From Psammoneis japonica (lineage: Eukaryota): a stretch of DNA of 64,000 nucleotides. The notes beneath the pieces were generated by a model that worked only from the letters and a program-made list of their open reading frames with translations, had not been told where the DNA came from and did no database searches. Location of the stretch: positions 1 to 64,000 of the forward strand of contig QPGO01000074.1 in the NCBI GenBank assembly GCA_008632985.1, written 5' to 3'. This document shows, piece by piece, positions 14,997-62,980 of this stretch; position 1 is the first letter of the stretch, and each line of letters begins with the position of its first letter. Made by a program: the position numbers and the translations under genes.

Positions 14997-15960
14997 TGTA
15001 TATCTTATCTCTTCAACGTCGCGTTACTGTAATGAAATTCGTGAACAGACCATTGCCATTGCGCGCTGTGCTGTGCTGATGGTATGGTAGTCTAACTTCC
15101 GGCATCGTCAGTCCCACTCCATGTGCAGGGGTTTGGTTATGAGTCCGAAAAACCGGGTTTATTTGGGCAGATTTCTGGTACAAAAATCACGTAGAAAATT
15201 AGGCCTCTTACATGCCGTACGTACAGTGCCGGTGCTGGCAGTGGAGCAAGCAAGGTAGTGCGGTGCAGTAGATGGAGTCACCAGTGCCTGCTCTCTCTGC
15301 TAGCTGCTAGCAGCTGGGAGTAGCTCTCTATGGTAGAGAGCAGCAGCCAGCTAGCCAGCTGCTCTAGAGCAGCTCTGCTCTCTGCTAGAGTGGCCAGAGC
15401 AGAGAGCAGCAGAGGGGGCTCCCATCCCTGAAGCGGCTGTGATGTCATGTGCAGAATCGTGCAGGCTCTGGCACAAATGCGAGTGATGATCACTTGACCC
15501 CATTCTTTGTTTGTTACAACAGGCATTGTGGCTTTCTACAGAATCGTCATCCACCAGATTTCCGCTGCCCAATTGTTTTTTACGTGGCTGGGGGTGCAAA
15601 TGGGTTTGGCCAGCACACACAGCTTTGAGCAAACAGCCGTCATGGAACGAGGTCTTTTCCACGCTGGCAAGTGCAACATTCTTTCATTGCGAGATTGTTT
15701 GTCAACAATCACTTGCCACATTTTTCCTCACAAAAAGTTAATGAAGTTTTGGGTCTCAACACAGCTGCTCATGAAAACTTGCACAAAGTGCCCAGAAGAT
15801 GCGCGCGACTGCACATTTGAGAGTTTCTTCTTGGTCTGCATTGTCAGAGTCACTGTTGGCACCCAAAGAGTCTTGAAGCCTTGAATTGAGCTCATCAAGA
15901 TCACACTTTTCCTGAATGAAAACAGAGTCCAGATGTTCTTTGGCAACACTCCACTCTTCA

Positions 15961-18900
15961 TGACAGGATTTGAACAGGATTTGGGTGCGCGCGAAATGTC
16001 GCGCGCTGTTTAGTTTACCGCGCACAGTTTTGTGTGCTTTAGTTCCGCGCGTTCGCGCGCGATGTAGTTTGCTTTCGAGCCACAAGGCTCACAAGAATAA
16101 CAACAGTGGCCCGATTGTGCCGACTCACACGTCTTTCGGCTCCTGTGACGGTCTCTGAGTGGAGACTCATCTGCCATTTAGACAGCAGCAAGGAGTTGTT
16201 GTTTGAATTCTTGCCATTTGCCTTCATTTTCTGTCAGATTGACAGTCTTGCTCATTGTCAACCCATTGAGCAACCGCCATCGTCGTCCTTGATTTACCGA
16301 CGACGCTTTCAATTCTGCGTGGACCTCCGCATGTGTTCTACGTACATCGGCAAGTCTACGCGCATTCAATGCCAGGCATCGGCAGGAAGTTAACGTCACA
16401 GTCAAGTCTCCTTGCCGCTGGATGTCTGGATTGATCACACCACCTTTCATCACTGAAGACACACATTCAACGGTCACATCCAAGTCCATCCTTGATCCTC
16501 ATCCCTTGACACACCCATTCAACGGTTAACGGTCAAGAACCCTGCATGTTCAAGGATCTTCGTCGCTGAAGACATGCACACACACACATCTTCACGGCCA
16601 AGAACTTGTGCCCACTCTTTGGGCTGCGGCTTTGCTGCCACTCTACAAGCACACCGAGTCCATTGCACCTGATCTGCCCCGGACCACTGGTGCTCTGCAG
16701 TTCCACTGGGTCCACGAGGACGACTGTGAGAGCAAGCAGCCGTGATTGCAGCCTGCGTTGGGGCGAGGGTGTTTTTCCCGCGTTTGTTCGTTCGTCCACA
16801 GCGCCCAACGCCCACGTCAACTGGCCAGCCTGATCGGGAAATCCAACCGACATAAAATGAGAACGGTTCGGGGGTCTTGTCCACCTCTGGTCAGCTTGCC
16901 TGCAGGGGTTTACAACCCGCTGCTCCACTCGCAAGCAACCCAAAGTGCCGCCAGCTGCGGGTTCGGACGTGCCGGCACAACTCTACGGACCGGATGGGAA
17001 GTTTAGCACTTGACAACGAACGGGACAGCACAACCCGGCGACTTCTGATTTTAAGACAGTCCAAGATTTCAAGTCAAGTCTGGCTCAAGTCAAGTCTTTT
17101 TCAAGCCAAGTTCCAAGTCAAAACTCGAGTCAAGATCGCGCTCTAGATTGGATCCTGTCTTTTGTTTCTGCTGCACCGTCCTCCATCATGGTTCTCACGC
17201 GACAGCAACAAACCGAAAGCTTCAAATGCATTCCAGGCACTGTGCTCAATCAAGACGATGACAGCCCTCTTTGTTCTGCCCTGTCCATCAATGGGATTGA
17301 ATCGTGCGAGGAATTGTTCACGTTCTCACCCACCCAAATTGACGCCCTCACTCACAGAGACGGCGCCAATGCAGTGCCTTTGCCACGGACCCACAGAAAC
17401 CTCCTGGCAGCTTTGATCAGCTTCTACTTTGTCAAAGTTTGCAACGGTGATGATGTGACCAATGAACCCCAGTTGCTCACACCCGACGAATTTCGCAACT
17501 GCCGCCTTGGTCCGGACTGCTTGACCTCTCTGGCCACTGGCGCAGCACCCTCCGCACCTGTGCCGAGTCCCTTTCCATCCAAACCAGGTGAACCCAGTGC
17601 CATTTTGACACCAGCCTTGCACTGTGCCGCCACTCAGGTGTCCCCTGGAAGTGGTGTCAGTCGCGCCCCGCATGTCTTGACCAACCCGCCTGCAAGCAAC
17701 CTCGGCCCAGTGCAGGATTGCAGCCCTTGCACAGGCCCGCACTTCGAGACCAGTTGGGACACTCCACCCATGGCTTCCAAAGCTGCAGTCTTTGCACCCT
17801 GCAAACCACGTGCTGCCAACCTCCACGTGTTGACCGCTGTCACCCTTCACAGTCTTCATTTGGGAAGTGATGGAGATGACAACTTGCTTCTCGCATCTCC
17901 TGATGGGGAGCCTCCTTTTCCCATCATTGAATCTGTTCACAACAGTTCAACCGGTTCATCAGATGGGGAGTTCAGGACATCCAAGCAGCTTCATTGTCTT
18001 CGGATCCTCCAAGCATGCACCATGAGACCAGGCCTCCTGACTGGATGCTCCAAGTCTCGCACCTCGAGACTGGGCCTCCTGATTGGATGCCTCAAGTCTC
18101 GCACCTCGAGACTGGGCCTCCTGATTGGATGCCTCAAGTCTCGTGCCTTGAGACCAGGCCTCCTGACTGGATGCTCCAAGTCTCGTACCTCGAGACCAGG
18201 CCTCCTGATTGGATGCCTCAAGTCTCGTACCTCGAGACCAGGCCTCCTGATTGGATGCCTCAAGTCTCGTGCCTCGAGACTGGGCCTCCTGGTTGGATCC
18301 CCCAAGTCTCGCACCTCGAGACTGGGCCTCCTGATTGGATGCCCCAAGTCTCGTGCCTCGAGACCAGGTCTCCTGATTGGATGTCCCAAGTCTCGCACCT
18401 CGAGACCAGGCCTCCTGATTGGATGCCTCAAGTCTCGTGCCTCGAGACTGGGCCTCCTGATTGGATGCCCCAAGTGTCGCACATCGAGACTGGGCCTCCT
18501 GATCGGATGCCCCAAGTCTCGTGCCTTGAGACCAGGCCTCCCAACTGGACTCTCCACGTCTTGTGCCTCGAGACCGGGCCTCCCAATTGGATCCTCCACG
18601 TCTCACACCTCAAGACTCGGCCTCCGGATTGGATCCCCCAAGTCTCGCACCTCAAGACTTGGCCTCCTGATTGGATCCCCGAAGACTCGTGTCACAAGAC
18701 TGGCAAGTCCTTGTGGATCCCAGAAGTCTTGCAGCACGGGACTGGTTGCCCCAATCAGACATCTGCAGCCTTGCACCACAAGATGTCTTGCTCCAATCTG
18801 ATCCCCGAAGGCTTGCACCTTGAGACTCGTTTCTCCAATTGGATCAGTCTCTCAGGAGATGCAGCTGAGCTTGCAATCGGACTGGTGGAACACAAGACCA

Positions 18901-19667
18901 CCGCTTGTGCCTTTGAACTCATGCTTGCTCTGTTCCCCAAGTCGTGCAAACGCCATGCCACCCTGCACGAGCACTGCTCTGTTTTTCTGGCAGCAGCCCA
19001 GTGTGGCAACCGTCCCAAGAACCAACAGACAGCCATCAGTCTTCATGACCTTCGCTCAGGAAGTGAAGGTGATGTCAACTTGTTTGCATTGTCCTGCAAT
19101 GTTGCCCCGCCGTTCAACATTGTCAACCAGACCAAGCTTTGCTCCTTCCATTGCAAGTGCGGATGTGGAATCCCACAAGATCCCAAGTGTGCCTTGAGCT
19201 TTGAAAAGCACAACGGCATCTGCAATTGGGGAGACGCAGCTCATCTCAAGATGACACGCTTGGAGAATGCAGCGTTGCTCTCGGATCTTGATCCTTTCTT
19301 GTCTCCTCATGTTTTGGTGCTTTGACTCCAAAGTTCTTCAGTCAATCCGAAGTCGAATCTGTTTCTGTGACTCCTCAAGCAAACTGGGGAGTGACAGGAT
19401 TTGAACAGGATTTGGGTGCGCGCGAAATGTCGCGCGCTGTTTGGTTCACCGCGCACAGTTTTGTGTGCTTTGGTTCCGCGCGTTCACGTGCGATGTAGTT
19501 TGCTTTCGAACCACAAGGCTCACAAAAACAACAACAGCAGCCCGATCATGCCGACTCACACGTCTTTCGGCTCCTGCAACGGTCTCTGAGCAGAGACTCA
19601 TCTGCTGTTCAGACAGCAGTGAGGAGTTGTTGTTTGAATTCTTGCCATTTGCCTTCATTTTCTGTCA
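15961..19667 (+). mobile_element. Internally deleted Ty1/copia (CoDi-like) LTR retrotransposon
   Basis: 276-bp LTRs at 15961-16236 and 19392-19667 (TGACAG...CTGTCA); 5-bp TSD CTTCA; GGGGAG before the 3' LTR; gag-like start at 17188 (MVLTRQQQ...DDDSPL); pre-RT remnant KCGCGIPQDPKCAL...NGICNWGDA near 19155. Confidence 0.92.
18020..18850 (+). repeat. 42-bp tandem repeat, about 16 good plus about 4 degenerate units, inside the copia element
   Basis: Unit ACCTCGAGACTGGGCCTCCTGATTGGATGCCTCAAGTCTCGC; 14-aa periodicity in the overlapping ORFs. Confidence 0.95.
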
Positions 19668-19807
19668 CTTCAAGAGCCTCCTTCTTTGCTTCTCAATGCT
19701 CTTCCCCAACAAACTGTCATTTGGACAAACTGGCAAAATCAAGATCTTCAGGTTCCCATCCTTCAATGTCTTGTGTGCACTGCACTGAGGCACAGCAGAG
19801 CAAAGTG

Positions 19808-20206
19808 CAGACGCGTTCCAGCCCAGGTGGGAGCTCGTAGTGCTGACGTGTGACAACAATAATTTTTGTCATCCGTCGTATGTTTCGTACGTAGATTTCT
19901 ACGTGTGACATTTAAAAAAAATTGTCCATGCTCGCTGTTTTGCGAAGCCCCAGACGTTTTATATAACAAATTTATAGAAACAATAATGCGCCAGTTACAT
20001 TCTTCAATGTCTGAAGAATGTAACTGGCTAAGTAAAAAATGATGTACTTCAATCATGTGCGAATTTGTGCGTTCGCAAAATTGCCTCATTTTCTGTTGGC
20101 GATCATTGACATTTTTATTACCGTATAATTTTACTACGGAGCTCGCACGTAGAAGTCTACGGGCCCAATGTCACACGGATTCCCACTTACGTCTGGAACG
20201 CGTCTG
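19808..20206. mobile_element. MITE of about 400 bp, possibly Tc1/mariner-type
   Basis: Perfect inverted repeat (TG)CAGACGCGTTCCAG ... CTGGAACGCGTCTG(CA); AT-rich non-coding interior. Confidence 0.75.
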
Positions 20207-20599
20207 CATCACACTTGAGGAGAGCTTTTGAGAGCTTGGCGATGTCAGTCTTCAGAGTTTCATTTGGTGCTCTGCTTTGACAACATGGGTCATCTTTGTC
20301 TTCATGTGGCATGTGGCAGCAATTGCACTCTCACCTTGTGCCATCTTCACAGTGGCTCTGCGTTTCTTCTTGTCTGACAGTTGTTTGGAAGCACCCACTG
20401 CACCAGCAACTGCATCCTTTTGCTTGAAACCAGCAAGCATGCTCAACATCATTGTGTGCATTGCAGTGCTGACAGCATTTGCAGCACTGCCATTCACCTC
20501 TGCTTCAAAGCCATCAATCAAAGCTCCAAGTGGTTTCTCAATCATCTCTTTCAATTGCAAAAAGGGTCCTCCCTTCTTTGCTCTTCCCCCCCCCCTTGC

Positions 20600-21650
20600 T
20601 GGCCTTTGCCCTTGCTCTCTTTCCCAAGCTCACCCAAGCAAGCACTCTCTCTGCTGCCCAACTCGCCCTCCCCAGTGGTGTCTTCCTTGCCCATGTGGTG
20701 ACTTGCACCCTGACCTCCTTGGAAACCATGCTTTTTCTTGCTCCAAGATGCATGAGGGTCCTTTGTTGAGCCACATCCACAATGCTGTCTGCACCACACT
20801 TGAAGCCCTTGCCCTCTTTGCGGCTTGCGCCACTCTCGCTGACAAGAAGTCCACCTCAAGCCTGCAGGACTTCTCCCCAACCATTCTCTCAAGCACCCTG
20901 CTGATGCAGGTGCTCAACTTGCTCCAAGCTCTGCACCTCCCCATGCACACTCTGTGCACCAATGTGTTGCTGTTGATGCTCCAGCTCCCCCCCTGCTCCT
21001 CCCCATTCTGCACCTGGTTTTCCCACCCCTCCCAACCAACTTGCCAAGGCTCACCTCAGCAGCACTTGGGGCGAGCTTCTTGGATGCAGCACCTCATCTT
21101 CCACAGGCTCTTCCATCATTTCTGCCACAAACCAGAGTCAGGCCTTTTCCTTCTCCCTTTTGCCCTTGACCACCTTGGCAGAATGAGCTGCCAACTTCCG
21201 CACCTTTTTCCCCATGGCTTTTCTCACACAACACCTCCTCTTCTGTTCCACCACCTCTCCTCCCAAGCCCCCCTGGAATGATCCCACTGACTTTTTGAAC
21301 TCCACCAGTGCCTCCTTTGCAGCCTGCGCCAACTCCCCCCCCCCCCCCCCCNTCCTCTCTCTGATGAAGTTTCTTGCCCCCAGTCCAGTGTCTCGACTCT
21401 GGCGGGACACACCTCTCTCCCGACCATTTTGGCTCTTCCAATCACACCTCTGCCCCTCAATCTTGGGCCACCCAACTCTTGAGCCTCAACTTTGGTCTCG
21501 CCTTTTCCAATCACCTTGCCAACTGCCAGTCCTTCCTGGCTCGGCCTCCTGCCTGCCTTAAACCTTCACCCCTCCGTCTGTCCGCACCTCCGCCCCCCTT
21601 CTGCACCTCCCATCCTGCCTTGTTGTTCCTTCCGCCTTCCGCGCGCTCTC
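20600..21650 (+). mobile_element. Decayed 3' part of an RLE-clade (CRE-like) non-LTR retrotransposon
   Basis: Zn-knuckle CPCG...DLLGNHAFSC...HN, then KPAGLLP...KHPADA, VAVD and LLPFALDHLG across frameshifts, matching the CCHC + restriction-like endonuclease layout. Confidence 0.6.
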
Positions 21651-21777
21651 CTCCTCCGCAGATTCAACATGTTTCTTTGGTTGAAAATGGCGGCGATCCT
21701 AAAAGAAAAGCACTTCTATCTCTTCTAATAGAAAGAGAGCAGCATGATGTTACTGTGATTACATGCAGGGCACAAAC

Positions 21778-24132: not shown

Positions 24133-24134
24133 GG

Positions 24135-24746: not shown

Positions 24747-25290
24747 CATGGGGATTCAAACGGCAAGCGGTGAAAATGTCATGGCGAAGCAGAAAAAAAG
24801 TAAAATTATTGCTTTGTGGAGATTGGAGATTTGAACATTTGTGTGATGTGAAAATGCGGCGTTTTGCAGCACAGCCACCCAACCTGCTGGCGGCCCGAGC
24901 CTTTCCCGCGCTTTGGCGGTCCCACGCGCGCTCGGGATGAGCGCGCAAAAGACAAAAACTGCTCGGGAGCAAAAAACTCCTTTGGCCCAGTTTCCCTTCT
25001 TCCAGAGCTCATTGGAGTCATTTCTTGCACCTTCTTGAAGCACAGTGTTCCTCTGCACTGAGCAGGGCTCTAAACAGAGGCTGTGGTGGCAGCCCACCAC
25101 CACTGTGAGCAGGGCCCCCCTGACAATGTCACACCCACCAGGGACGCTCGTCACTCACTTTCCCAGAAAACTTGATCTCTTGATCAGAGAAATCACCCAA
25201 TGAAACAAAGTCACTCTCAATGACTGCTGAGGTCACCATCCAGCACAACTCCCTGCTTGATGACAGGAGACTGCAGAGCATTCGAGCGCA

Positions 25291-25580
25291 CAATTTCAGA
25301 TGAGCGTGCCCAGAGCATCTGTGCATGTGGCACTGGTCTGCTGTCTGCCCCCCAATGGCAGTGTGGCATGTCACAATGACATCACTGATGAAAGATGCAT
25401 GATGGCCTGACTGGCACAATCCACAATGCAAACAGCAACAGTTTTGGTGCAACACAAAATCCAACAAACAAGTGGCAGTTTGACAAGATTCCCTGTTTGC
25501 ACGACCCCACTTTTTCCAGAGCAAACCAGCTCAGAATTTTCACAACAGTGTTTTTGCAACACATCCACATTTTCATCAAC
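25291..25580 (+). repeat. LTR-like repeat homologous to 35651-35937
   Basis: Alignable over about 290 bp; one copy lies before gag, the other after an integrase. Confidence 0.7.
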
Positions 25581-25599
25581 CATCAGGTGCACAGGACAC

Positions 25600-28500
25600 A
25601 GCAACATTGCCCCTGCACAGTCAGTGAGCAAGGTTGCAAATCCATGAGAAACAAGGCTGCAACATGCTGGCAGGAGGACAGACAGCTGCAAAACCAACCA
25701 TGAAGAAGCGGTTCAACCACTGACTCCATTTGCATTTGGCATGCCCTGAAAAAAAAGAGCTTCAGAAGGGTGAGCACCAGATGCACAAGCTGTGCAACAA
25801 TCCTGCAGATCCAGACAGCTCCACATGTGAGCCGAGTTTGCCGCACTTTTCCATGGGAACATGTGAGGAGTGGCTGAACTTTGAGTGCAATGCCAAGCAC
25901 ATGTTCCAGGGACAAAATGACATTGCAGGACCAGCAAAGTTTTTGCTCATGTGCAGGCTTCTTGAGGTGATGCCCTGATGACATTTGAGAATGTTGCGGT
26001 GATGCTCAAAACACTGAGACTGATGTCACCTTCAAGAAGTGTGTGGCAAAGGTCATGCAGAGCGTCTTCCTGTGCATGTCTGTGACATCGCATGTGCAAG
26101 CTGGCCAATGTCAAGACCCTCAAGTGTGAAGCAAGGGCAGTTGAGATCAATGGCTGCATCTCTCAGTTTCTGCCAGTGATGAATGGTGGAGATGTGCCAG
26201 AGGCATTGCCTGATCATGAGCTGCATGACTTGCTCAAGTGCAGTGCACCAAACGCATGGCTGGTCATGCTGCAAGATTTGGACTGGCAGCTGGCACATGC
26301 TGTGGCCAAATTTGTCTCATTCTGCAAGCAAGTTGAGAACAGGCAAAGGATGTGGAAGGCATCCCAGACAAAAGAACATGACTGATGATTGCCAAGCACT
26401 GGAGCACCACATCAAGCATGTCAAGACATCACATGAGAGTGGTGGTTGCAGCAAGTCCAACCAGAAACCTCATGATGAGAAAGAGTCAAACTTCTTTGTT
26501 GAGAAGAAAGCAGAAACCCATGACTCCAATGCAAAGAAGAAGCACAAGGAATGTGAGGAGGAGCTCAAAGCTCAATCACTTCTGTGATCCACATGTCAGC
26601 AACTCTAAAGATGAGTCCAAAGCAGACCTTTGAAGAGGAGGCTGACACAACACTTGTGGCTTTAATGCATTGGATGAACATGTGAATGAAAATCTGTCAC
26701 AGCATTGCACTTGTGTTGTGGACCAACTCTGCAAGCATGTTAAAAAGACTCACTTTTTGACGCCTGTCTTGTTGACATCCATGAACACCATGCACAGCAA
26801 GGGCAAGACTTGAACAATTGAGGCACTGCTTGACAATGGCACCAGCAGCACTTTGCCAAATGAGCAACACTGCAAATGTCTGTGAAGCCATGCAAAGGCT
26901 GAAACACTTGTGCATCAAGTCCACGTGCACAGCAGAAAGTTGGGCAACTGTGATGTGATTGTTGGACATGACACTCTGGAGACACAGGACATCTACACAG
27001 CCTTCTCTAAACACAGATGATTGAGTGGCCTGCGGTCAATGGAGGAGTTCCAATGAGGCACACAGATGCTGTGGCAGAAACCTCCTTTTTCATTCAAGAT
27101 CCAGAGCTCTTGATGTTGAAAAGTGACCAAATTTCACTCATTTTGGATGCTGAGCACATGCTGGCATGCCTCAAGGACATGACACAAGGGGCAACAGGAC
27201 TCAATGGAGCTCAACAAGCAAAGCTGTTTGGCTCATTAAAGAGACATTAATCCCCATTTGATGGGACACCAGGACAGTGGAAAGGAGAACCCTGCCAAAC
27301 CCAGCTGAAGAAGGGCATGGAACCATGTCATGAACATCCACACAATGCACCTCATGCATGCAGAGCCACACTGTGCAAGGAAGCAGAGTGCCTTGCATGT
27401 CCATGTGTTCTCAAATGCATCGACCAATCCCAGTGGGCAGCTTCATTGTTTGTCACACAAAAGAAAGACTTGACAGTTGGTTTGTCAATGATTTCAGGGA
27501 GCTGAACAAAAGGACAAAGTGAGTCCCTTGTCCAATCCCTCATGTTCAAGATGCACTGCCAAAGCCAGAAGGCTTTAAGTGGGCTGCATCGTTGGATTAA
27601 AACATGGGCTGTTGTCATGCCCAGTTGGACAATGACAGCAAGAAGCTCTGTGCACTTATTTTCCCATGGGGAAAGTGCAAGATGCAGGCATTGCTGCCCA
27701 TGGGACAGTGCAATTCACCTGACAAATTTCAGGAGAAAATGTCAACCGCATTTGAGGATCTGTTCTTGTTCATGTGAACACATTTAGATGACCTTCTTGT
27801 TGTGATAAAAGACACCTGCTAAGATCCTCTCAACAAACTTGAAGAAGTCTTGTTGCAAGTCAAGAATGAAGGGCTGAAAGTCAACAATGAAGTCTCATTT
27901 CTGTCAGATCCAACTAGAACACTTGGGCCATTTGGTTGACTGAGAATGCATGCAACCAACACCCACCAAAGTTGAATTCATTGAGTGCATTGCAAAGCCT
28001 GCAAATGAGTGCAAACTCCACTCATTTGTGAGTGTGGTGAACTGCTGTTGCGATGCATGGCTCATTCCCTTGCAAGACTTGCAAGCAGGGCTGTCACCTG
28101 GAGCCAGACATCCATTGAAGTTGAGGCATTTGAGACTGTCAAACAAGCACTGTTTGAAAATGTCTCATTGGCACTCCCAGACATTGACAAACCTTTTGAG
28201 ACACATGCGATTCCTCTAAATGTCATCTTGGAACAGTGACATCACAAAATGACAAACCAGTTGTGCTCTGCAGAGCAGAAAGCTCAATGGTGCACAATTA
28301 AACCACACAACAATGGAGAGAGAATTGCTTGCCATTGTGAAGATGTTGAAAAATTTTGCACAATTCTTCTTGGTCAATGAATGGCAGCACATGCTGATTG
28401 CAAAAATCTTGCTTGTGTGGGGTGATCAACACCAAACACATGATGTGCTGGAGGTCAATGTGTGAAGAATGTGGCCCTGATTTGTGGTGTGTCAAAGACA

Positions 28501-29400
28501 ACATGATCCAGTTGCTGATGAATTGAGCCAACTTCAACTGGCACCTGGCTTGCCTTCCAAGTGTGGTCTGAAAGTTGTTAAAACACCAGATTGTCATCTG
28601 TTGTGTGCAGCTTTCAATGCAGATGGCATCGCTGCTCATTTGCTTCAAGAGGATAAAAAAGAGCAGCTGCAGGACAAATGCCTGCTGTTGCAAACCAAGG
28701 ACTCATCCAACTGCTCCATCCATGCACTCCATGGGGGTGGGTGGGGGGTCATCACTGCTGTTGATGCTTTGTGAGGACAAAATTGTTGCACCACAGTCAT
28801 CGCAGGTTGCTCTGACTGAATGGCACCACATGCAGCTGTGTCATCCCAGAAACATCTGTTGCCCATCACTTCTGTTGTCCTGGCATGAGGTTTGTGGTGC
28901 ATGCCATGTGTGCCAAATGCTGTCAATGCCAGAAGACAAAAAGCAAAACACAGCACCATGGGAAGTCACCAGAAAAAGTGGCACAGATGATCCCTTGGGA
29001 GAGTTTGAGCGTGGATGTGATGGGGCCCTGCAAAATTCAAAGAAGTGGCAAAGACACCTTGCATTGTGGGTGATCATGATGATTGACCCAACAACTGGAT
29101 GGTTCAAGATCAAGGAAGTGTCTGCAAAGTGGTGGCAAATGTTACAAAACAAGCCTGGCCATGCAGATGCCAATGGCCAGCCCAGGTCATTCATGTCCAC
29201 AAGACAGAATTTGTGGCAGAATTCAGCCAGAGAACACAAAAATGTTGTGACATTGAGAGCCATGGTGGAACACACACACCAAATGCTTGGCAATGTGGCA
29301 TGTTCATTTTCAGTGAAGGATGTGGAGCTGGACAAGAACGACCCATGGAGTGGCATTCTGTCCACCACAGCTTTTGCTGTGATTGCAAATGGGTGGAGTG
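25600..29400 (+). mobile_element. Decayed Ty3/gypsy gag-pol
   Basis: Order PR (ALLDNGTSS, about 26820), RT (DFRELNK, NMGCCH, FPWGK, HLDD at 27781), RNase H (SRKLNGAQLNHTTMERELLAIV), IN (LCHP, PWESLSVDVMGPC, MIDPTTGWFKI). Confidence 0.9.
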
Positions 29401-32400
29401 GCTCTAAACCCCTTTGTTTTCTTTTGTCCATGTGAGAAGCTGAGGCCTGGGGTGTTGCAACCTCTGGCAGCACTTGAAATCATCATCTTCAAGTCCAGTG
29501 GGCAGAGTTGGAGGCACAGAGTGTGCAACAAGACCAGCTTGACATGGGCTCAGCGCAGCATGGCTTTGCTTTTTGGTTTCATTGGGTGGAGCTGGAAATG
29601 ATGTGCTGCCATCCACAGCTGGCATGAGGTCACCCACCATGCCCTGCACAGTGCCAGTCAAGAAAAAACATTTTGGAAGTGAGTGGATTCTGGTGGGTAA
29701 AAAATTGAGCTGTGAGGTGAGATTTGAGCAGTTTCTGACTTTCCATCTCCTTGGCATCAGAGTCAGAAAACTGAGCTGTGGTCAGAGCCAACAGCTGGCA
29801 CTTGAAAAGTGGCTGCTGCCACAATTTGTTGCAGTGGTGACAGCAGTGACAGAGCATGGCACAGCAGCACATCAAGAAAGATGTCAGTGTGTGGCAATGA
29901 GAGAGCATTTGCAATGCAATGGACTCTGCTGGGTGCTGTCTCATCTGTTTTGAGCATCTTTGTCACACATGGCAAAGCAAGGCAGCAGAGTCAATGACAA
30001 ATTTGCACCAGATAAATTGTTTGTTGATGCACATGAATGACAGACACATGACAGGGTCCATCCATCAGAGCATCCTTGCTCAGTCACATGACTTGTTCTT
30101 GTGCCACTTCAGAAAAGCCATCAATTTGTCCAGCTGATGGGCAGCCTCACAATGCTGTGCTTCTTCCAATGAAGTCATGCAAAAAAGGCCAATCACATGA
30201 CTTGCAAGCCAATTTTTGGCATGTGAAACCATGTGAAATGCTTGTTCACATCATGTCTGTGGCATGTCTTCTGTGCAATTTTCCTGTGGGATGCTCACAA
30301 GACTTGAGTGAGAAGCCTTGCTCTCCTCTTCATTTCCAAAACACAAAAACAAACAGCAGCCATGACCAGCCCACATCATGCCATGGCAAAGAACAAAAGA
30401 ACAAAAGACTTGGACAGTGCTGCTGATGCTCTGCTTGCCCCAGAGGAGAGACTTGCCACTGGAGATGAAAACCATTCACCAACTGGACACTCATCTGAAA
30501 GGATGGCTGCTTGGCCCTGCTTTGATCCCATTGAGGTGAAGCCTGTGGTGGACAACAATGAGAGCAGGCCACCTTTGCTGGAGGGGCCAAACATTGGGGG
30601 GGTGGCAATTTTGAGTTGGTTGCACCAGACAAGAAGAGGCTGCCAGACTGACAAAAGAAACAAACAGCGAGCTTTGCTGGGAGCTGCTGATGATCATCAG
30701 CATGCACAGTGCCCATTTGCCTCAGCCAAGGGTGAAAGTGATGGAAAGTGGGAAGATGTTTTTGGCACTTTCTGTGATCCAGTCACAGGACCAGCCAGGA
30801 ACTGCCAGCAGCCAGAAGCATGAACCAAAAGTCATGCAATTGGTGTGAAGCAAAACTGTGCAGAACCAGAATTTTGGTGGACAACTTTGGCACCAAGGAC
30901 AAAATGGGAGGAGGCAAAGAGGCCACAGGGTGTGAGGTTCCAGCCAAGAACCTGCACCAAGTTTGGCTTGTGGCAGTGGTGGCAAAGCAGGAGGAGACTC
31001 AAGAGGAGCAAAGCAAAACTGTAGACAGGAAAGCAACAAATCAGATGTCAGAAGTGGAGCTTGGGCTCACTCCTCTGGCTCCTTTCAATGGAGGCAAACT
31101 GTCTGTGAAATTGGACATCAATCCAACCACAGTTGCAGCTGGAGGATGCCTTGATGGAGCAATCAGCAGAGCTCCTCAACCCCCCCCCCCCCCCAAAGGA
31201 TTTTGCAACAAGCCCAGAGGGCTCACAAAAAGAAGAGGTGGAGTCCTTGATTTCAAAGCTCACAAGTGATGCAGTGCTCAGCTGCTCCCCTGAGCTGCAA
31301 GGATCCAAGAAGCCTGAGCGGGATGTGAGGACATTGTGGGAGCTTTGCATGCTCAAGAGCAATGCTGTGAAAAAAAGTGGAGAAAAGGATGAGCATCCAA
31401 ATGCTTTCTGTGAAGCCACATCTGAGGAAGTTTTTTCATCTTTGGGCAAAAAGCCTGCTGAGTCCAATGCTGCCACCAAACCATCCACAAAATGAAATTT
31501 AAAATGCTTGGTTTCTTGCCATTGTCAGCTCAGATTCAACCAATGTTTGGCAAGTTCATGTTTTTGGTCAACAGCATGTTGCATCTTGTGGCCCATTTGA
31601 CTGTGTGGCATGTGACCTGCAGGAAGCCACAAGATTGGATCCATTTGAGGTGTGAAAGCAAAAGCAACACAACTGGAAAGCACTTGTTCTGCAGATGAAA
31701 TTGTTGCCATTGATTTTTGCAAAACTCTTGGTGCTTCTGGAGCAATGCCTGGTGCATGAAAAAACGTGCAAGCAATCACCAGACAATTGCCCTCTGTTGC
31801 TCTCTGACTCTTCTCTCTTCTGGCGGCTGATGCTCCTGGCTGAGCACTCTGGTTGGTTGTGGTGCAAGCCACAAGCACCAGGCCTCAGGCCAGAGCTCAC
31901 AATGTCAGGGACCCCAGAATTGGAGCTCAATCTAGAGAGCCACAAAGGGTGGGTGGCATGGGCTGCAAGTGAAAACTTGCTCTTGACTCATCAACATGCA
32001 ATGCAACATTGATGAAAGAAAAGATTGAGGTTGCTGCAGCTTGCAAAGGTGCTTGTCACAGCTGCACATGCTGCTTCTGTGGTGCAACACATGAAGCAAG
32101 CAGCAACACAAAGCAAACCCCACCCCCCAATCATGCAGGAGGAGGCACAGACCACTGTCTCCCATTGGTCTCCAATCTGTGCCAAAGAATTTGGTGCACA
32201 ACTGGCAACTGCAGCAACTGCAAAGTCATTTGGACAAGTTTGCATGCAGTGTGTTTTTATTTTCACGATTGTGGAGTTGGCAATGCAAGCACTGAGGATT
32301 GAGGACTGGGAAGCCGTGGCTGTGGGCAGGCCGTGGATCAGCAAAACAACATGGCAGCATTGACACACAGCAGTTCCAACTGCAAACAAGAATGCAAAAC

Positions 32401-32879
32401 AACAGCAATGATGAGGACACCAGTGTCAGGAGTGGAGACAAAAGAGCAAGAAGCAACTGAAAGAAAGACAACAGAAGTGGAGAGGAAAATGTCAACCACC
32501 GCAGAAAAAATGGCCGTAAAATCAGAAAAGTTGGAGGAAATTGAGAATGAGCTGCTGTCAGACCCACAAATGAGAGCAGTCAAATGGCTCTAAGCTGTTG
32601 CTCAAGAAATGTGAGAGATTGTCTGACAAGCACAAAATCCTCCTGCAAGAGAAGGATGTCCATCTTGCCCATTTCAAGAGCTTGCAAAGCTGATGCGACC
32701 AAGTCGCTGACAGGGTGACCTTTGACATGATGGTCACTCAGAGCCCCACAGCTGTGCACACCCACAATGCAGTCACTTCCCTTGGTGTGTGAGTGCTGTT
32801 GCTGTTTGGAGCTTCCATCAACCAAAGCCTGAGTTGTTGCAGAATGACAGAAGAAAACTCTGCAGATTGACTGCAATGC

Positions 32880-33310
32880 ACTGCAGAGTGCACAAGAAAA
32901 AGGGAAACATGGTGAAGTGTCAGCTTTGTTGAGTCTGGGGAAATTCTGAACAAGTCACAACAAGTCACCTGTTGGGGCATTCTGCAAAGAATCATGTGAG
33001 GAAACGCATCAAAATCAACAACATCAATGACAAGCAAAACCTCCTCATGCTCTCCAAAGGTGTGAAAAAAGCATCTGAGATGGGTCAAATCTATTTTTGG
33101 GGGGAAAACAACTGCACTTTCTTCATCATGAGGATTCTGGATGATGAGGTGAAACAGGACCCTGTCTTTCATGGTTCAACAGTGGTCATTGGCAGTCTGG
33201 AGGGGAAATTGTTGCCAATTCCAAAAGATGTCAAGCTGCCATTCAATTGAGTTCTCAGTCATCATGCCCAGCATGCCTTCCAAAGAGTGCTGAAAGAGGG
33301 ATTTGTGCCA
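32880..33310 (+). pseudogene. Decayed Crinkler-type HNH nuclease domain
   Basis: SHLLGHS...INDKQNLLMLSKGVKKASEMGQIYF...LPFN*VLSHHAQHAF resembles the HNH_2 pattern AHI...IN...NLLxL...AFDxGxIxF...PFRRxLxxHA. Confidence 0.5.
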
Positions 33311-34379
33311 AAGGAAACAACTGCTTCAATCAAGCATGGATTGACCCTCAAACAAAAAATTCTGAGAGTCACCCAAGCTGCCACAGACAGCCATGTGAGC
33401 AATGACTCCACCGCACTTGATCTAGAACAAATGCGCAAAAGTGAACAGACCATTGCTGAAGGATTCTGAGCTCGGAGTCCCCAAACAACCAACATTGGAT
33501 GTGGAATGTCAAGTTTGCATGTCATCATTGTGCCATTGTTTGTGAGGGCACTTTGTTGGCATGCTTGGTGGAGTGTTTGTGAATCTGCTGCTTCCTCATG
33601 GATTGCATCCATGTTGAGAAGCAGTGAGGCTCACAACAAATGTCATTTTATGGCTGTGCCTGCACGGGTTTTCAAATTGCTGCAGAGAGGTCCAGGAGCC
33701 TCTAGAAGCAGTTTGCAGGATTTGTGTCATTCTAGTTTCCTTGGTCACACCATCCAACTCTCATCATGAGTTTGATGCCCCACTCCAAATGGTCCATTGG
33801 TGCTTGATCCTTTTGACTGCAGTTGCCACAACAGCCGTGGGACTGCTGGACAGGTTGGGAAGCTTGTCAGGGCAGCGGTTGGCTGCAATCAAGAAGAGGG
33901 CATTCAGTTCAGAAATTGCAACAGAATTGGGATTGTGAATCCACTGACCATTGTTCATGCCAACATCGGTGTTCATTGCCTGAGACTGCATTGATCCATC
34001 CCATCACTTTTTTGGTGTTGCAGGCCCTCTCCAGCTGGTGGCAAGACTGGCAGTGTTGGTGGTGTGTTGGCAGTGTCATTTGTGCTGCACCTCATGCTCT
34101 GAGCTTTGGCATGTGTCCTCGCCCTCCAAACAACTTCTTGTTTGTCATGCTGGGAGTCATCATGACTCGCAACAAGCACCTCCAATGAAAACTCCAGTCA
34201 ATTTGGTGGTTTCAAATCTTTTCAAAGAGAAACAAAAATTCTTCTTGAAAACCCACTAAGCTGATTTGGCAACAATGGAGCCAGCCACATTGCCGCTGCC
34301 ATTCCACCAGCTTGTGTTGCCATTTTGGGGCTCTCACCTCTGTGGGCAGTGGGGTTTTGTCCAGTGGAGTTGCTCTGCT

Positions 34380-35520
34380 GTGTCATTTGTCCCATCCAAG
34401 CATTCTCACTTGCAAGGTGTTTGGTGCTGAAAGTGTGATGTGCTGGAGGTTATCATGCAAATTGTGTGGCCCTGAGTTGTGGCATGTCATGGGACAACAC
34501 TGCCTGGTTGCTGATGTGTTGAGCCAACTTTCACCAGTGCTTGGCTTGCCTTCTGAGTGCAACCCAGAAGTTGTTGAAATGCCAGATTGTTGTCCATTGC
34601 ATGAAGCTTTCAATGTGGGCACAATGTAGATGGCACTGCCGCCCATTGGCTTCAAGGATCCAAAAAGAGCAGCAACAGGACAAGTGCCTGCTGTCATGAG
34701 CTCAGGACTTGACCGACTGCTCCATCCATGTGTTCTCCATGGGGGGAGGTTGTCATGACAGCTGGCATGTCACAAAAGAAAATCATCACACATCAGTTGT
34801 TGCAGGTTCCTCTGACCAAATGGCACCATGAGCAGCTGTGTCACCCTCCCTGTGAGACATGTGCAAAAACATTTGTTGCCCAACATTTCTGTTGGCCCAG
34901 CATGAGCCCCATGGTGCATTCAGCATGATGCATCAAGTCATGCAATCAATGCCAGAAGGCAAAACACAAAATGCAGCATTGGTGGTTGTGCTGGGAAGTT
35001 GCCAGAAAAGGCGGCACAGACAATTCTTTGGGAGACTCCATGCATGGATGTGACAGGGCCCTGTAAAATTCAAAGATGTGACAAAGACATGTTGCAATTG
35101 TGAGCAGTCATGATGATTGACCCAGCAACTGGGGGGTGGTTTGAGATCAAGGAAGTGTCTGCAAAATGTGCAGATGCAGCTGCAAAATGTTGCAGAACAA
35201 GCCTGGCTGTGCAGACACCCGTTGTGAGCCCAGAGGTCATTTGTGACTGTGAGACAGAATTTGTGACACAAAACAATTGTGGCATTCAGAAGAAGCCTGT
35301 GCAAGCAAAAGAAATCAACAGGCAAATGCCACAGTGGAATGTGCACACCACACTCTTGGTGATGTGGTGCACTCATTTTCAGCACAGGACATGGAGATGG
35401 ACAAGGATGGCCTGTGGAGTGACACTTCATCTGCTGCAGGCAGCTTTTGCCCACATGCACTGTGGCACATGCAATCACATGGCATGCCAGCCCCATGCAG
35501 CTGGTCTTCAGACATGATGC
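34380..35520 (+). mobile_element. Second decayed gypsy RNase H-integrase segment
   Basis: VMCWRL, WHHEQLCHP and MIDPATGGWFEIKEVS; paralogous to about 28400-29380. Confidence 0.85.
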
Positions 35521-35650
35521 AAGAACTTCATCTGTTGCCCATCATGCCAAGCATCTGCTGGCCAACATGGCAAGCACCAGCAATGCAACACTGCTCATGT
35601 GTGCCTCCTGGGAAACATGATCCAAGGAGGACATGGCTCTTTGACTCAGG

Positions 35651-35937
35651 CAATTTCAGAGGAATGCCTGGAGCAGCTGCGCACATGGCACTGATCCATT
35701 GTCTGCCCCTGATGGCAGTGTGCCTGGCATGTCATGACAACATCACTTGCGGAAGACATGTGATGGCCTGGCTCACACAATCCATGATGTGAACAGTGAT
35801 GGTTTGGGTGCAACACAAAATCCAAACAAACAAGGAATTTGACAAGATTCCCCATTTGCACGATCCCACTTTTTCTAGAGCAAACTGGCTCACAATTTTC
35901 ACAACAGCACTTTTATGACACATCCATGTTTTCATCA
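35651..35937 (+). repeat. LTR-like repeat homologous to 25291-25580
   Basis: Direct alignment; differences are mainly TG/CA swaps. Confidence 0.7.
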
Positions 35938-38900
35938 CTCACTGGGTGCATCAGGCACTTGCATCTCCAATTTTTTGTTGCTTCTTCTCCAAAAGAAAGA
36001 AACATGATCTCCATCAGGTTTGCACTGCATGCTTGAAATTCAAAAGGCCAAGGGAACACACCAGGCCTCTTTGCCCTCCAAATCAAATGTTTCACCAGCT
36101 CTGGATCTTGGGCATGTTCACAAATTGGCCTGGGCCAAGGCTGCTGCAGCCACTGAGGAAATGCAAGATCCAAAACAGAGCTGGAAGAGCCCAAGGTCAA
36201 AGCACTTTGCAGCTGGTTGTCCAAGCTCAAAAATGAGCTTGCCATGTCCAACAAGAAGGTCAATGAACTCCTCTGACAGAACAATGAGAAAGCCTCAAAC
36301 AAATTGAAAACAGAGCACAGCAAAGTCATTTCCTGCATGAAGGCAGAGAGCTGGAAGAAGTCCAGAAACAAGCAAGTTGCAAACATTGGCTGCAGTTGTT
36401 GAAAGTTCTCTGGGAAGAAAAGAGTTCTCCAGGAGAAAACTGCTTTGACAAGACAAGAAAACATGTGACAGAGCTGCACTTGTAAAAAAGGAATAATCTG
36501 GAAGAAAAGCCAAGAAAAAACTCCAGCAGCTTGCAGAGGCAACTCTTGCAATTAAAGAGTGGCACAAGAAACATCACAGATGTGTTGCAAAAAAATTGTT
36601 TCTTGCCACTGTGCTGTTGAGAAGATGGAGAAAAGTGTGGTGGTTGGCTGTCCTTGTTGCAGATGAACAAAGTGCAATGTCAAGAGGTTGGTGCTTGCAC
36701 GCTCACTTTCTCTCTCTTTGTCTGCCCCCCCCCCCCCCCCCCCTCTTTTGTGCACCCCGACTCTCTTCTGAGCACAGAGGAGCACCCATTGCTTGAGAAA
36801 AAATGCCCCACTGACAGGTCAGGTGAGTCCCAAAGGGGCCACCAGAAAAAGGTGCATTGCAGCTTTTGACCAGAGTGGGCACTCTGTCAAGAACAAAGAA
36901 AAGTGGGAGTCAGCCACCCTCCTGTGCTGCTGAAAGTGTTGGGGGAGAGCCAGAGCTGTCAACCCCACTTTTTGAGACCTTCTCTTGCAAAACAAAAAGA
37001 GCTGCAATTGAGAATGGCATTGTTTTTGATCTGTTTTGAGTTTGCAGTTTTGATGAAAGCACTGCACCTCCATTTGTGTGGTTTGTCTGCACGTTGAAAA
37101 TGACAAAATGAAGGCCCCCATGGGCTCCACACACTGTGACAACAATGCATGCAGTGTGTTGTTGCTTTGCAGCACTTTGTTGCAGCACCATAAAACATGG
37201 GGGCTGATGGGGGGCCACCCAATTGATGATGGCTTAAAAGCATCTGAAAAAGTGGCTTTGGATGATTGGTGGTGAGATTCTTGCCAACATGGTGACAAAG
37301 CATGGCATTCCACCACAGGTTTCAAAACCCAAATCCCTGTCAAAACAGCACATGTTTGGTCATGCAGGTGGCTCCAAGTTTGTGAAAAAAGAAGAGGGAA
37401 AGTGGTGGAGGAGGGCAGAGAGGTCTGTGCCCAATGTGCGTGCATGACAACCAGACAATTGATGCTTGGGTGACCCGCCCAACACCAACACCACAAACTT
37501 GCCATGATGGTGGCACAACCGATGCTCAATTTTGCCACCAAACCTGTTCCTGCCAAAAACACCAGTGCACAACATGCCACATTTTTCTGACAAGTGCATC
37601 AAGAAAAAGAGAGATGAGGGAAAACCCAAAAATGGATGACAAATCCTTTCTGTGATTTCATTGCTGTTCAGCCGTGCTTGATTCTCACAACTTGCACATC
37701 AACAACCTGTGCTCTGTTTTGCTGCCAAACCTTTCCCACCAAAATGCCAACATGTGACATGCTGCACATTTTTCTGACCCGTCAAAGTGCAGCCTCCTTT
37801 GTTGCACCTCATGAGATGTCAAGAGAGCAAAGGTCTGTTGGTGGTGGACCATTTCAATTCTCCTTTGTGAAAGTCACAATGCATCCTTCTTGGTGTCCAT
37901 CAAAATGCACCCTTGGTGTCCATCAAAGGGCGAACAGCACATTGACAAAGGCGCCAAATCAGCACAAAGATGAAGCCATCAACAAGAGCAAAGTGCTGCC
38001 CAGTGCTGACCATGCACTGCCCATGCTCATTTTGGCTGTTCTTTCAGTGCAACCAACAACCAACGAACATGGCGCACAACATCAAAATTGCACCAGAGGT
38101 GTTTTGTCCCTCTGAGTGCATGGCTTGAGAGGGGAAGCTGGGTGTGCTGCCTTCACAAATTTGCATGGTTCCATTCAGTTTTTATGAGATTTGAACATTC
38201 ATTGCACCAATCAAGGAGCTGGCACCCTCCACATGTGTCTCCATTCAACAAAAGCTGTGAGATGATGGATTGGAAAGAAGTCGAAGTGGGGCATTGGAAA
38301 AATGCAAGCTGAAGAGGAGAGGGTCAGATGAACAAGTGGCAAAGTGATGAGAGGAGTTGCAAAGAGCAGCACATGGCCACACCACCCGGGAATCTCAGCG
38401 CTGCTCAAGTGGCAGCTGCACACTTGCGTGGTGACAAAATTCGCTCACATCCACAAATGAGGCAGGAGGATTGTCAAAGAACAAGTGGGTGCGAGTGGCA
38501 AACCAGAGAGTGACAAGAATCTGAGGAATTAACCATGCTGTTTGTGAGGAAGCAGCTGCCTCTACTTGTCCTTGTCAAAATGGAATTGCGTCCTCATCAA
38601 ATTCTACACAAGTTCCGGGGTTAAGTCCTGCACGTTTTATGAAGAGCCACCCAAAAAACTGAAAACCCCTCGAAAATCGAATGAGGTTATGAGCTAGACC
38701 ATAGATGGTGGTACTGTAGAATAAGTATGTTGTGCTACGGCCCAAGCAAAATAGCATGTTCCTCGTGGACAGAAGTAGATCACAGAACACAACGCCAACG
38801 CAAAAAGATCGACAACAAACAACGAACTTGAAACTGAGTGTCTTGTACCGTTACGCAATCGCCGCTTCCTCATTCAACGACAAGGATCTGACCGACCCTT

Positions 38901-40708: not shown

Positions 40709-41973
40709 GAAAGATGTCTACGCGGCACTTTGCCGTCTTTAATTTTAGACATATTACTTGTAGTTCGGATAAGATTATGGGCAAGGATGCTTTGATTAAC
40801 AAGCCTCTAGGGCGACACTCGGCTATAGAGAATTCTTCCGTTGATTTTAATAAAAACGAATTGCAAGGATTCAAACAACTGATTATAATAACAGCAATGT
40901 GGCTGAAAGATCGTGTCCACATTCTGATGAAAAGACATGCTTCGGCACAGGCCCTCAGCACACACGTGTCGAAGGAATGCTCAATACATTTCACCTTGTC
41001 CCTTGCTCTGCCACCATGTGTCTTGAAAGCACGCAAATGACACGGTTGCCACCCTGCATCTCATGAAAGGAGCTGTCTTTTTTTTTCATCGCTGCATTGC
41101 TGGCATTCACATTTTCAGCTCCATGATTCAGCACTGTGATGGTTGGTAGCTACAAAGTTGAAAGGCAGGAACAACAAGAAATGATTGCATTGCAATCTTT
41201 GCCGGACATTTCACGCAAATGCCGGTGCAAGATGCAACCACTCATGCACTCCCCAGAGCTCGCCCTGTTTCCATGGTCTGCACAGAGAAAGACAGTGGCT
41301 TGCCCTTGTCCCAAGAGAAGGTGCTTGCTTTCTCACTCATCAACTTGACCTGCCCTCATGCCATGAGAATTTGGAGCTGCTGCTGGCTGTGCAAGCAAAC
41401 AAAGGCGTGATTCCTCCTGTCTTCTTGCCGCAACACAGCGTGTGGCAGCAGCCACACCCAGTGGCGCCAGCTGCTCTGGCTGTTGGCGACATTGTGTTCG
41501 TGAGGCTCACCACTCCTTGGGAGAGTCCTGTGTGCCCCTCCAGTGCCACCAGCCTCCTGGGGTTGCTGCTCTTCTTGGAGCCACCCGCCACAACATCACA
41601 CACTGTGGCTCTGCAGTGCCCTGCCTGAGAGGCCTTCGTGGGGTCTCCTCTGCCGCCACTGTCCCGCGCACCCACATCAGAGGCAGGTGGGAACTGTGAG
41701 CCCCCTGGCTTGTAAAAGAATGCTCTGTGGAGGCTTTTGCGAATTTTAGGAGGACCGATTTTTGCCACCGTCCGTCGTCATGGTGGAAACAGGGGGGGAG
41801 CGGGAGGCTCGAGCACACTGCTGGCTGGCAGCACATTGCATTGAAGAGGCCAGCACGGGCGGCGGAAGGGCGGGCGGCCGGGCTTCGCGCAAGGCGAAGA
41901 GCACGACCGGCTGTCGAGCATAGAATACTTCCAACCAAAATTTTGATGGCAAGAAGCACGACGCACGACGGCC

Positions 41974-55100: not shown

Positions 55101-55720
55101 TAAAACACCACACTAAAAAGGAAAGCTCATGTGTGCAAAGAGAATGGCTCCAGCAAAACAGCACTGCAACACCCCCTGCTTTGGCAACTTGTCTTCTCTT
55201 GACATTTTTTCTCAAGACGGTTCTCTGCACTCTGAAGACAAAATTGACCTTTTTTTAATGCCTCTTTTCCTGAATCTTTTAGAAACCAGGCTTTTGGCAA
55301 GCACAAAGCAAGTCCTGACATTTGACATGCAAACCCAATCTACAAGCATCAGTCAGAAGGTCAATGAAGATCATGGTGAAAACAGCGGGACAAAAGAATG
55401 TTGCATCATGGTGCAAGCAATTGGGGGCGCCAGAAGCAGAGCACCACCGCTGTCGTCTGAGAAAAATGTGCCGTTTGAGAATCCACAGTGCCGTGTGCTT
55501 GCCGGCACCACAAGCAATTCTGCACTGGGAATTTTGCTGTGTTGCTGTGACAGTTTTTCAAGTTGGTGTGGCATTTTCATGGTTGATTCTCAAGTGGGAC
55601 ATCAAGCTGGTTTCTGGCGCAATGTTCTTCCAAGAAAGAGCAGCAGGGAGGAGGAAGCAAAGGGTGCACATGAGAAGCACACAGCTCTGGGGCAGAAGAC
55701 AATCCAGACAATGGGAAGCC
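52200..55720. other. TpA/CpG-depleted decayed block, probably TE-derived, family not recognised
   Basis: Composition only; no diagnostic motif recognised. Confidence 0.5.
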
Positions 55721-56033
55721 ACTCTTAAGAGGAGTCGCTTTACAAAGTGTTTGCTCTCTTGCAAGAGGACAGACAGGTCGCGGAAGAGGACAGACCGGTC
55801 ATTGGCACGTTTCGAATTGTCTCGCGCCAGAATTCGCGAATCATCATCAATCTCAAAATCGTGACAGCAAACATCCGCGGTCGCGTGGATCGTGGAGAGA
55901 GCCCACACTGCATCAAGAGGAGTTGCGGAATCGCATTGTTCCGATTGCATAAGCACCGCTGCTACTGTCGAAACGATTGCCGAGAGCCAAACGCTACAAT
56001 ACCAACGGCTGGTTGACAAAACAACTAAGCATC

Positions 56034-62950: not shown

Positions 62951-62980
62951 GCCTTCACCCATCACACATGGCATGAGACC

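Follow-up and report, generated by a model that had tools for sequence, protein, structure and literature searches.

The first 64,000 nucleotides of contig QPGO01000074.1 of the diatom Psammoneis japonica (GenBank assembly GCA_008632985.1; hereafter, the window) contain one long terminal repeat (LTR) element, present as a single insertion. Its two LTRs have diverged in a pattern that very probably reflects post-integration, TpA-specific A:T→G:C hypermutation of an insertion of an abundant non-autonomous LTR retrotransposon in this diatom genome. The 5′ LTR (LTR1; 15961..16236) and the 3′ LTR (LTR2; 19392..19667), located like the other parts of the element on the forward strand, are each 276 bp long and align without insertions or deletions, with 255 of the 276 bases identical. 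Both begin with TGACAGG and finish with CTGTCA (TG..CA ends), and the start motif was found at only two places in the window, the starts of LTR1 and LTR2. The same five bases, CTTCA, are located directly before LTR1 (15956..15960) and directly after LTR2 (19668..19672). A five-base match of this kind has a chance of 1 in 1024, and the identity of the two target-site duplications indicated that both LTRs belong to a single integrase-mediated insertion. LTR1 retains 6 TpA and 21 CpG dinucleotides, and LTR2 retains 1 and 19, respectively.

The internal region (16237..19391; 3155 bp) showed a TpA observed/expected ratio (o/e) of 0.10, with 16 TpA dinucleotides, and a CpG o/e of 0.62. It ends in a purine run, GGGGAG (19386..19391), which resembles a polypurine tract and is located directly before the 3′ LTR. 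GGGGAG also closes the upstream sequence of other copies of the family in read contigs whose loose ends lie at 15961, and the loose ends of other copies fall exactly on the LTR borders 15961 and 16236. The family is very abundant, with 4591 contig pieces placed from sequencing run X1 alone. No TGG-type primer-binding site was readable after LTR1, and the window contained no tRNA genes for comparison. The longest internal reading frame, taken from its first ATG (17190..18801), belongs to no known family and extends into a 14-residue repeat encoded by a 42-bp tandem repeat array (17898..18869). The internal frames matched no Pfam family, and no protease, reverse transcriptase, RNase H, or integrase of a gag/pol region was recognizable among them. 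Residues 59–330 of the longest frame had no sequence relatives among proteins of near length, and the best of its atlas look-alikes (0.76) was under the level of chance hits. A 20-base LTR probe found nine loci in metagenome contigs, all of them chance matches of 20–30 bases, and a second LTR probe found three chance loci in genome contigs and none in viral contigs. Because the internal frames contain no gag/pol and the 3155-bp interior is too short, the element was classified as a non-autonomous (LARD/TRIM-like; large retrotransposon derivative/terminal-repeat retrotransposon in miniature) LTR retrotransposon. A 142-residue frame spans the reconstructed empty site, and frames of such length are expected in TA-poor DNA anyway.

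Differences between the two LTRs

The two LTRs differed at 21 bases distributed over 15 sites, and the differences were transitions without exception. This count, including its partition into four classes, exactly reproduced that of an earlier reading made from the sequence only (hereafter, the sequence-only reading). Six sites are adjacent TG↔CA double changes (16107/8, 16116/7, 16146/7, 16160/1, 16175/6, and 16189/90), and five are TA in LTR1 and TG or CA in LTR2 (16012, 16016, 16041, 16098, and 16179). Two further sites are CG in LTR1 and CA/TG in LTR2 (16055 and 16058), and the remaining two are G in LTR1 and A in LTR2 (16079 and 16095). Accordingly, TpA-type changes, comprising the five single sites and the six doubles, accounted for 17 of the 21 differing bases, and the rest consisted of two CpG changes and two others. 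At least six adjacent pairs arose from 21 random mismatches over 276 positions in 59 of 200,000 simulated trials (P = 3e-4), a test that did not demand that all six pairs be TG↔CA. Given the transition share of 63/98 in an ordinary 1.9-kb tandem array of the window, the probability of 21 transitions among 21 differences was about 9e-5.

Next, we compared the fates of the two self-complementary dinucleotides. The LTRs have 19 CpGs in common but only one TpA. A CpG was changed in one LTR at 2 of 21 sites, consistent with the previous observation that most CGs are retained, whereas 11 of the 12 visible TpA-class sites were changed in at least one LTR. The retained CpGs (LTR positions 151, 161, 170, 177, and 189) interleave with the doubles (147, 156, 186, and 200) at distances of 5–10 bp. 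The loss per LTR at TpA was about 0.5–0.9, compared with two differences in 210 other sites. The Kimura two-parameter (K2P) distance between the LTRs was 0.083 on all sites and fell to 0.0096 when restricted to the 210 sites that belong to neither the TA nor the CG class. The LTR age of this insertion is thus inflated about 8.6-fold, which bears out the expectation that the process would inflate LTR-based age estimates.

Reverse transcription builds both LTRs of a retroelement from one template. Together with the shared target-site duplication, which ties both LTRs to one insertion, this places the differences in the chromosome after integration, as the sequence-only reading had proposed, barring gene conversion. 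The outcomes in the two LTRs were balanced, with eight TG and nine CA, indicating that both DNA strands were hit.

The exception just named leads to the alternative that the differences were not made in place, in that one LTR was replaced by gene conversion or the LTRs were unlike at insertion, the pair then being a sample of family polymorphism. The very large family, represented by the 4591 contig pieces of run X1, is indeed polymorphic at the same types of sites, and all five single changes are located in LTR2. Exchange between two elements is nevertheless ruled out by the matching target-site duplication, LTRs unlike at insertion run counter to their origin from one template, and the whole 3′ part of the element, not LTR2 alone, is more depleted of TpA, which fits regional mutation in place. 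This alternative, even if true, would leave the spectrum and its direction intact, because the polymorphism within the family shows the same signature. We therefore regard this alternative as quite improbable, and favor post-integration hypermutation of the inserted copy.

The depletion along the element was graded from 5′ to 3′. LTR1 retains its six TpA dinucleotides, the TpA o/e was 0.16 in the first part of the interior and 0.05 in the 42-bp array, the last 521 bp of the interior contain no TpA, and LTR2 contains one. This increase in TpA loss suggests patchy or directional action along the element, and the location of all five single changes in LTR2 agrees with the gradient. In addition, two TA-dense islands (15001–15386, 25 TA in 386 bp; 19838–20188, 26 TA in 351 bp) bracket the TA-poor stretch in which the element is inserted, and the host flanks between the islands and the LTRs are themselves TA-poor (4 TA in 574 bp and 0 TA in 170 bp, respectively). 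These flanks represent either older eroded sequence or a spread of the process past the element.

TpA-depleted blocks in the window

We then examined the composition of the whole window in 1-kb windows with a TpA o/e ≤0.43 and a CpA+TpG o/e ≥1.52, the cut-offs applied to clustered 1-kb windows in the available part of a preprint of April 2026 on the chlorarachniophyte Bigelowiella natans (Mettrop et al.; bioRxiv 10.64898/2026.01.13.699255). Of the 64 1-kb windows, 25 passed both cut-offs, and these fell in six blocks with sharp edges, such that the window as a whole is a mosaic. The six blocks together comprise 28.6 kb with a TA o/e of 0.01–0.10 and a CA+TG o/e of 1.47–1.86 (up to 2.05 in single 1-kb windows), whereas the remaining 35.4 kb showed a TA o/e of 0.54, a CG o/e of 1.0, and a CA+TG o/e of 1.15. 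The combination of low TA with high CA+TG can result solely from the removal of TA and not from its gain, and the direction of change is therefore from TpA to TpG and CpA.

Outside the element, the largest block spans 13.8 kb (24801..38600), in which both TpA and CpG are nearly gone (50 TA and 88 CG; o/e 0.05 and 0.11, respectively; CA+TG o/e 1.86). Smaller blocks are located at 20201..21700 (TA o/e 0.01, CG 0.26, and CA+TG 1.66), 40901..41900 (0.10, 0.49, and 1.62), and 52201..55900 (0.05, 0.24, and 1.79). The block at 58201..63400 has lost half of its CpG (TA o/e 0.04, CG 0.54, and CA+TG 1.71). Thus, in both the focal element and the block at 58201..63400, TpA is nearly gone and about half of the CpG is lost, indicating that the TpA process is faster than the loss of CpG. 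Two diverged direct repeat pairs were found within the 13.8-kb block (25291–25591/35651–35950 and 28441–29221/34436–35271). The TG↔CA share of double changes in these two old pairs was 12/14 and 23/40, and the pairs may be LTRs of nested old elements. A single N is present at 21351, within the block at 20201..21700.

Erosion of TpA turns Tyr codons into His or Cys codons and deletes TAA and TAG stops, which explains the long open frames on both strands of the blocks. Among 121 frames scanned, out of 156 in and around the blocks, no Pfam family was found except for a marginal HNH_2 match below its cut-off. The internal frame of the element (17190..18801) contains Tyr at only 2 of 537 residues, along with 26 Cys and 32 His residues. 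One codon of the 14-residue repeat that the 42-bp array encodes (17982–18869) is TAC (Tyr) in two units, CAC (His) in seven, and TGC (Cys) in seven.

The ordinary DNA of the window served as a control. A tandem array with a 1.9-kb unit (6291–13421, with older copies at 1929–4152), whose product matches no Pfam family, contains four copies that are 92–97% alike and is of ordinary composition (TA o/e 0.4–0.5; CG o/e about 1–1.25). Among the four copies, the transition rate was 0.018 at TA, 0.0095 at CG, and 0.008 elsewhere, with about one transversion per two transitions, and none of the nine doubles was TG↔CA. These rates show no hypermutation outside the blocks, and the process is restricted to the blocks.

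Ancestral state, sequence context, and neighboring features

TG and CA are each one step away from both TA and CG, and the LTR pair alone therefore cannot decide which was the ancestor of the doubles. The sequence-only reading had interpreted each double as one ancestral TA (or CG) resolved on opposite strands. That interpretation was upheld, and the choice it had left between the two dinucleotides now leans clearly to TA on the evidence of the CpGs, likelihood, family data, composition, and context. When each dinucleotide class was given a single rate, descent of the doubles from TA yielded a log-likelihood (lnL) of −17.75 (p_TA 0.80 and p_CG 0.05 loss per LTR) and descent from CG yielded −36.69, placing TA ahead by 19 lnL units.

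States of other family copies were obtained from the reads of four public runs of one sample over 15900–17000, for which the counts of site classes given here refer to the 40 variable positions listed. At the double site 16107/8, C replaced T in 43% of the depth and A replaced G in 67% (at least 18 contigs); hence, TA outnumbers CG by 24 points. Position 16126, at which both LTRs have CA, has TA in 75% of the read depth, and represents the kind of hidden same-strand double hit that the TA model predicts. Among the 40 positions listed, 22 were single sites with TG/CA in this copy and TA in others, 10 formed five TG↔CA doubles, 3 were of the CpG class, 4 were transversions, and 1 was another transition. 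In run X1, 97 of 102 variable places were transitions. One contig links the internal end of another copy to an LTR identical to LTR1 through 16012, 16016, and 16041. Within the 42-bp array of the element, one column pair consists of CA 7, TG 7, and TA 2, and a CpG column is retained in 14 of 16 units. These array counts are not independent, because the units form a two-unit higher-order pattern, and they carry little weight.

Several points weigh against a TA ancestry of the doubles or the polarity assigned to the single sites. The likelihood comparison presumes a single rate for all CpGs, and patchy methylation would weaken the preference for TA. Of the six double sites, one has direct support from an outgroup, and all of the runs come from one sample, possibly the one assembled into the window. 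The contig covering 16012, 16016, and 16041 may be a repeat-graph chimera, making it a weak means of polarization. The occurrence of all five single changes in LTR2 and none in LTR1 needs either the 5′-to-3′ gradient or chance (2 in 32). Another column pair of the 42-bp array consists of CA 7, TG 6, and CG 1; that is, its variant is CG rather than TA. Moreover, the three oldest blocks are also depleted of CpG, and some of the doubles in them may derive from CG. As to the ancestral base pair at the six doubles, the expectation of TA from copy data was thus supported at 16107/8, the one site with such data.

In one alternative account, the doubles arose by methyl-CpG decay, the six sites having been CpG at insertion and deaminated on opposite strands, with the TA sites coming from a second process. 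The change of CG to TG or CA is the commonest hypermutable step in methylated transposons, two of the LTR sites are plain CpG losses, the old blocks have a CG o/e of 0.11–0.26, and the CA/TG/CG column pair of the array is of the type expected. Diatom transposons are methylated, according to the available part of a published study (PMC9998398). Yet with 19 CpGs intact and two hit once, the six doubles, which amount to about 12 hits, would require a second, nearly fully lost class of CpG interleaved at 5–10 bp with untouched CpGs. Methyl-CpG decay also gave the lower likelihood and the rarer state at 16107/8, and does not account for the five TA sites, the TA o/e of 0.10 in the element, or the context effect described below. 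We consider it an unlikely origin of the doubles, for which TA remains the much likelier ancestor.

The reverse direction was also considered, in which a process like repeat-induced point mutation (RIP) changed C to T at CpA/TpG, so that TG/CA would be ancestral and the TAs of LTR1 and of other copies derived. Such a process would leave TA in LTR1 at the five single sites and TA in other copies where this copy has TG/CA, and the DNMT4 enzymes of centric diatoms are relatives of fungal RID, as described in the available part of the same study (PMC9998398). It cannot, however, produce TG↔CA doubles. It also predicts an excess of TA and a deficit of CA/TG, whereas the blocks show a TA o/e of 0.01–0.10 and a CA+TG o/e of up to 1.86, and TA predominates at 7 of the 22 family sites among the 40 positions listed. 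We regard this direction as extremely improbable.

Modified bases give strand-specific transition errors on some long-read platforms, and systematic base-calling or consensus errors at modified bases of silenced DNA could in principle have generated the TG/CA calls. Of the sampled words of the element, only 54% were found in the best run, a point in favor of such an artifact. Nonetheless, contigs from the public runs match stretches of the element (1031 pieces at least 99% alike, and two records with 0 differences), although the runs may share the sample of the window and their independence is limited to that extent. The contigs also show the TA, TG, and CA variants as separate copy sequences, and no known error rate comes close to a nearly complete conversion of 13.8 kb. 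An artifact is accordingly very unlikely, and we retain hypermutation of TpA as the source of the differences.

The sequence context of the sites provided additional information. Inside the blocks, 49 of the 92 surviving TpA dinucleotides were located in TTTA/TAAA, whereas outside the blocks 164 of 1287 were (odds ratio 7.8; p 1e-18). Of the five sites changed in one LTR only, four had TpA preceded by TT, compared with none of the six double sites. The loss of TpA is thus context dependent, and the division of the LTR sites into single and double ones is explained by slow and fast contexts. No such effect is predicted if the doubles originated from CpG. These data suggested that the mutating activity has an extended sequence preference, by which TTTA/TAAA is spared.

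The remaining features of the window lie in ordinary DNA or beside the blocks. An intronless gene for an EF-1-alpha-like protein of the EF-Tu family is encoded on the reverse strand (43812–45173), and its product is 82–90% identical to diatom proteins. The closest cluster, at about 90% identity, includes a Thalassiosira protein and one member labeled Alexandrium, and other named matches were from Pseudictyota, Nitzschia, Odontella, Entomoneis, Licmophora, and Minutocellus. A second gene on the reverse strand (22366–24141) has 14 relatives, the sole named one being from the diatom Seminavis robusta. On the basis of these two genes, the window is assigned to a diatom. The low TA content had raised the possibility of a dinoflagellate with 5-hydroxymethyluracil, but a short spliced-leader motif gave no match, and this origin was rejected in view of the two genes. 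A 1.36-kb inverted repeat in ordinary DNA (4812–6169/50184–51539), with arms that are 80% alike and 44 kb apart, encloses most of the window, including every large depleted block but the last. A 153-bp exact direct duplicate (24135–24287/24595–24747) has its copies 460 bp apart and is located just outside the large depleted block.

Proposed mechanism and comparison with known systems

In the mechanism that we propose, TpA steps of chromosomal DNA would be altered from A:T to G:C after integration, a hit on the top-strand A giving TpG and a hit on the bottom-strand A giving CpA. The LTRs would be identical at the start and then mutate independently of each other. Where a TpA was hit in just one of them, the pair would show TA versus TG/CA (five sites). 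Where the TpA was hit in both, the pair would show TG versus CA if the hits fell on opposite strands (six sites) and no difference if they fell on the same strand. TpA with TT on its 5′ side or AA on its 3′ side would react more slowly. Decay of methylated CpG would run alongside, far more slowly in this element, and in the oldest blocks both TpA and CpG would have been erased. In chemical terms, an ADAT2/TadA-like enzyme would most likely deaminate adenine in DNA to inosine, in line with the proposal made for B. natans, and the blocks are presumably targeted as mobile or silenced DNA.

The closest known counterpart comes from mutation-accumulation lines of B. natans, in which the mutation rate of two integrated viral regions is about 1000-fold above background. 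There, A>G or T>C changes made up 230 of 231 mutations, each of them at TpA and giving TpG/CpA, and an ADAT2-like DNA adenine deaminase was proposed; the preprint also notes that ADAR favors U before the edited A (bioRxiv 10.64898/2026.01.13.699255). In its available part, the preprint makes no mention of diatoms, stramenopiles, LTRs, or retrotransposons. As far as that part of the preprint describes the B. natans system, the P. japonica case resembles it in the A>G/T>C changes at TpA, the involvement of both strands, the location in chromosomal integrated DNA, the confinement to blocks, and rates far above those of the rest of the genome or window. The hosts belong to different lineages, a diatom (Stramenopiles) and a rhizarian chlorarachniophyte. 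Within the same limits, the targets differ as well, being an LTR retrotransposon and unclassified blocks here and giant-virus and virophage inserts in B. natans. Erosion was far deeper here (TA o/e 0.01–0.10 versus 0.45 for the B. natans viral region), CpG was also lost in the older blocks, whereas almost no G:C>A:T changes were reported in B. natans, and the TTTA/TAAA context effect has no counterpart in the available part of the preprint. The evidence is comparative here and experimental in B. natans.

Other systems share some of these features. RIP in ascomycete fungi likewise produces heavy dinucleotide-context transitions on both strands of chromosomal repeated or mobile DNA and blurs LTR dating. 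It converts C to T, however, mostly at CpA, and thereby generates TpA and AT-rich DNA, whereas here TpA is destroyed and CA/TG are made; instead of the TpA excess and CpA/TpG deficit that characterize RIP, the blocks show the opposite composition. Methyl-CpG decay, known from vertebrates, plants, and, from the available part of PMC9998398, diatom transposons, similarly yields TG and CA from a self-complementary dinucleotide, but it leaves TpA alone and was far slower in this element (2 of 21 CpG versus 11 of 12 TpA sites). The CpG methylation and DNMT4 genes of diatoms, as reported in that part of the study, explain the CpG part of the pattern, not the TpA part. Pre-integration editing of retroelements by ADAR or APOBEC likewise produces clusters of transitions in LTR elements. 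An edit made in RNA or cDNA is confined to one strand and appears as the same change in both LTRs, whereas here the LTRs differ and both strands are equally affected. Together with the de novo origin of the B. natans signature in the chromosome, the balance of eight TG to nine CA outcomes supports the claim of the sequence-only reading that the process acted on chromosomal DNA rather than RNA or cDNA.

The literature search yielded the B. natans preprint and no description of a TpA signature in diatoms or LTR elements. The P. japonica case is therefore best filed with this recently described kind of process, TpA-directed A:T>G:C hypermutation of integrated mobile DNA. Three features go beyond those reported for B. 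natans, namely the much deeper erosion, the coexistence with CpG decay, and the spared TTTA/TAAA context.

To date, one preprint on a single organism has described a process that converts A:T to G:C at TpA alone and in invading DNA alone. A second case in the distant and ecologically dominant diatom lineage, on a retrotransposon family with thousands of copy fragments, would mean that the process extends past a single strain and past viral inserts, and it would bring the enzyme within reach of a search by genome comparison. Each LTR pair would constitute a natural clock experiment that records rate, direction, and context, and the present pair already suggests that TTTA/TAAA is spared and that the TpA rate is far above the CpG rate. 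On the practical side, LTR insertion ages are overestimated in such genomes, eroded elements lose recognizable protein domains, and TA-poor DNA gives long spurious frames that can mislead gene prediction. More tentatively, and as a possibility that we would not yet call probable, TpA editing may be an old genome defense that is shared across the Stramenopiles–Alveolata–Rhizaria (SAR) supergroup or was repeatedly acquired. In diatoms, it might act on retrotransposons and silenced DNA, sparing TTTA/TAAA, and, together with methyl-CpG decay, leave behind fossil DNA saturated with CA/TG as a major fraction of the genome. Provided that the systems are homologous, contrasting genomes that bear the signature with those that lack it should lead to the enzyme.

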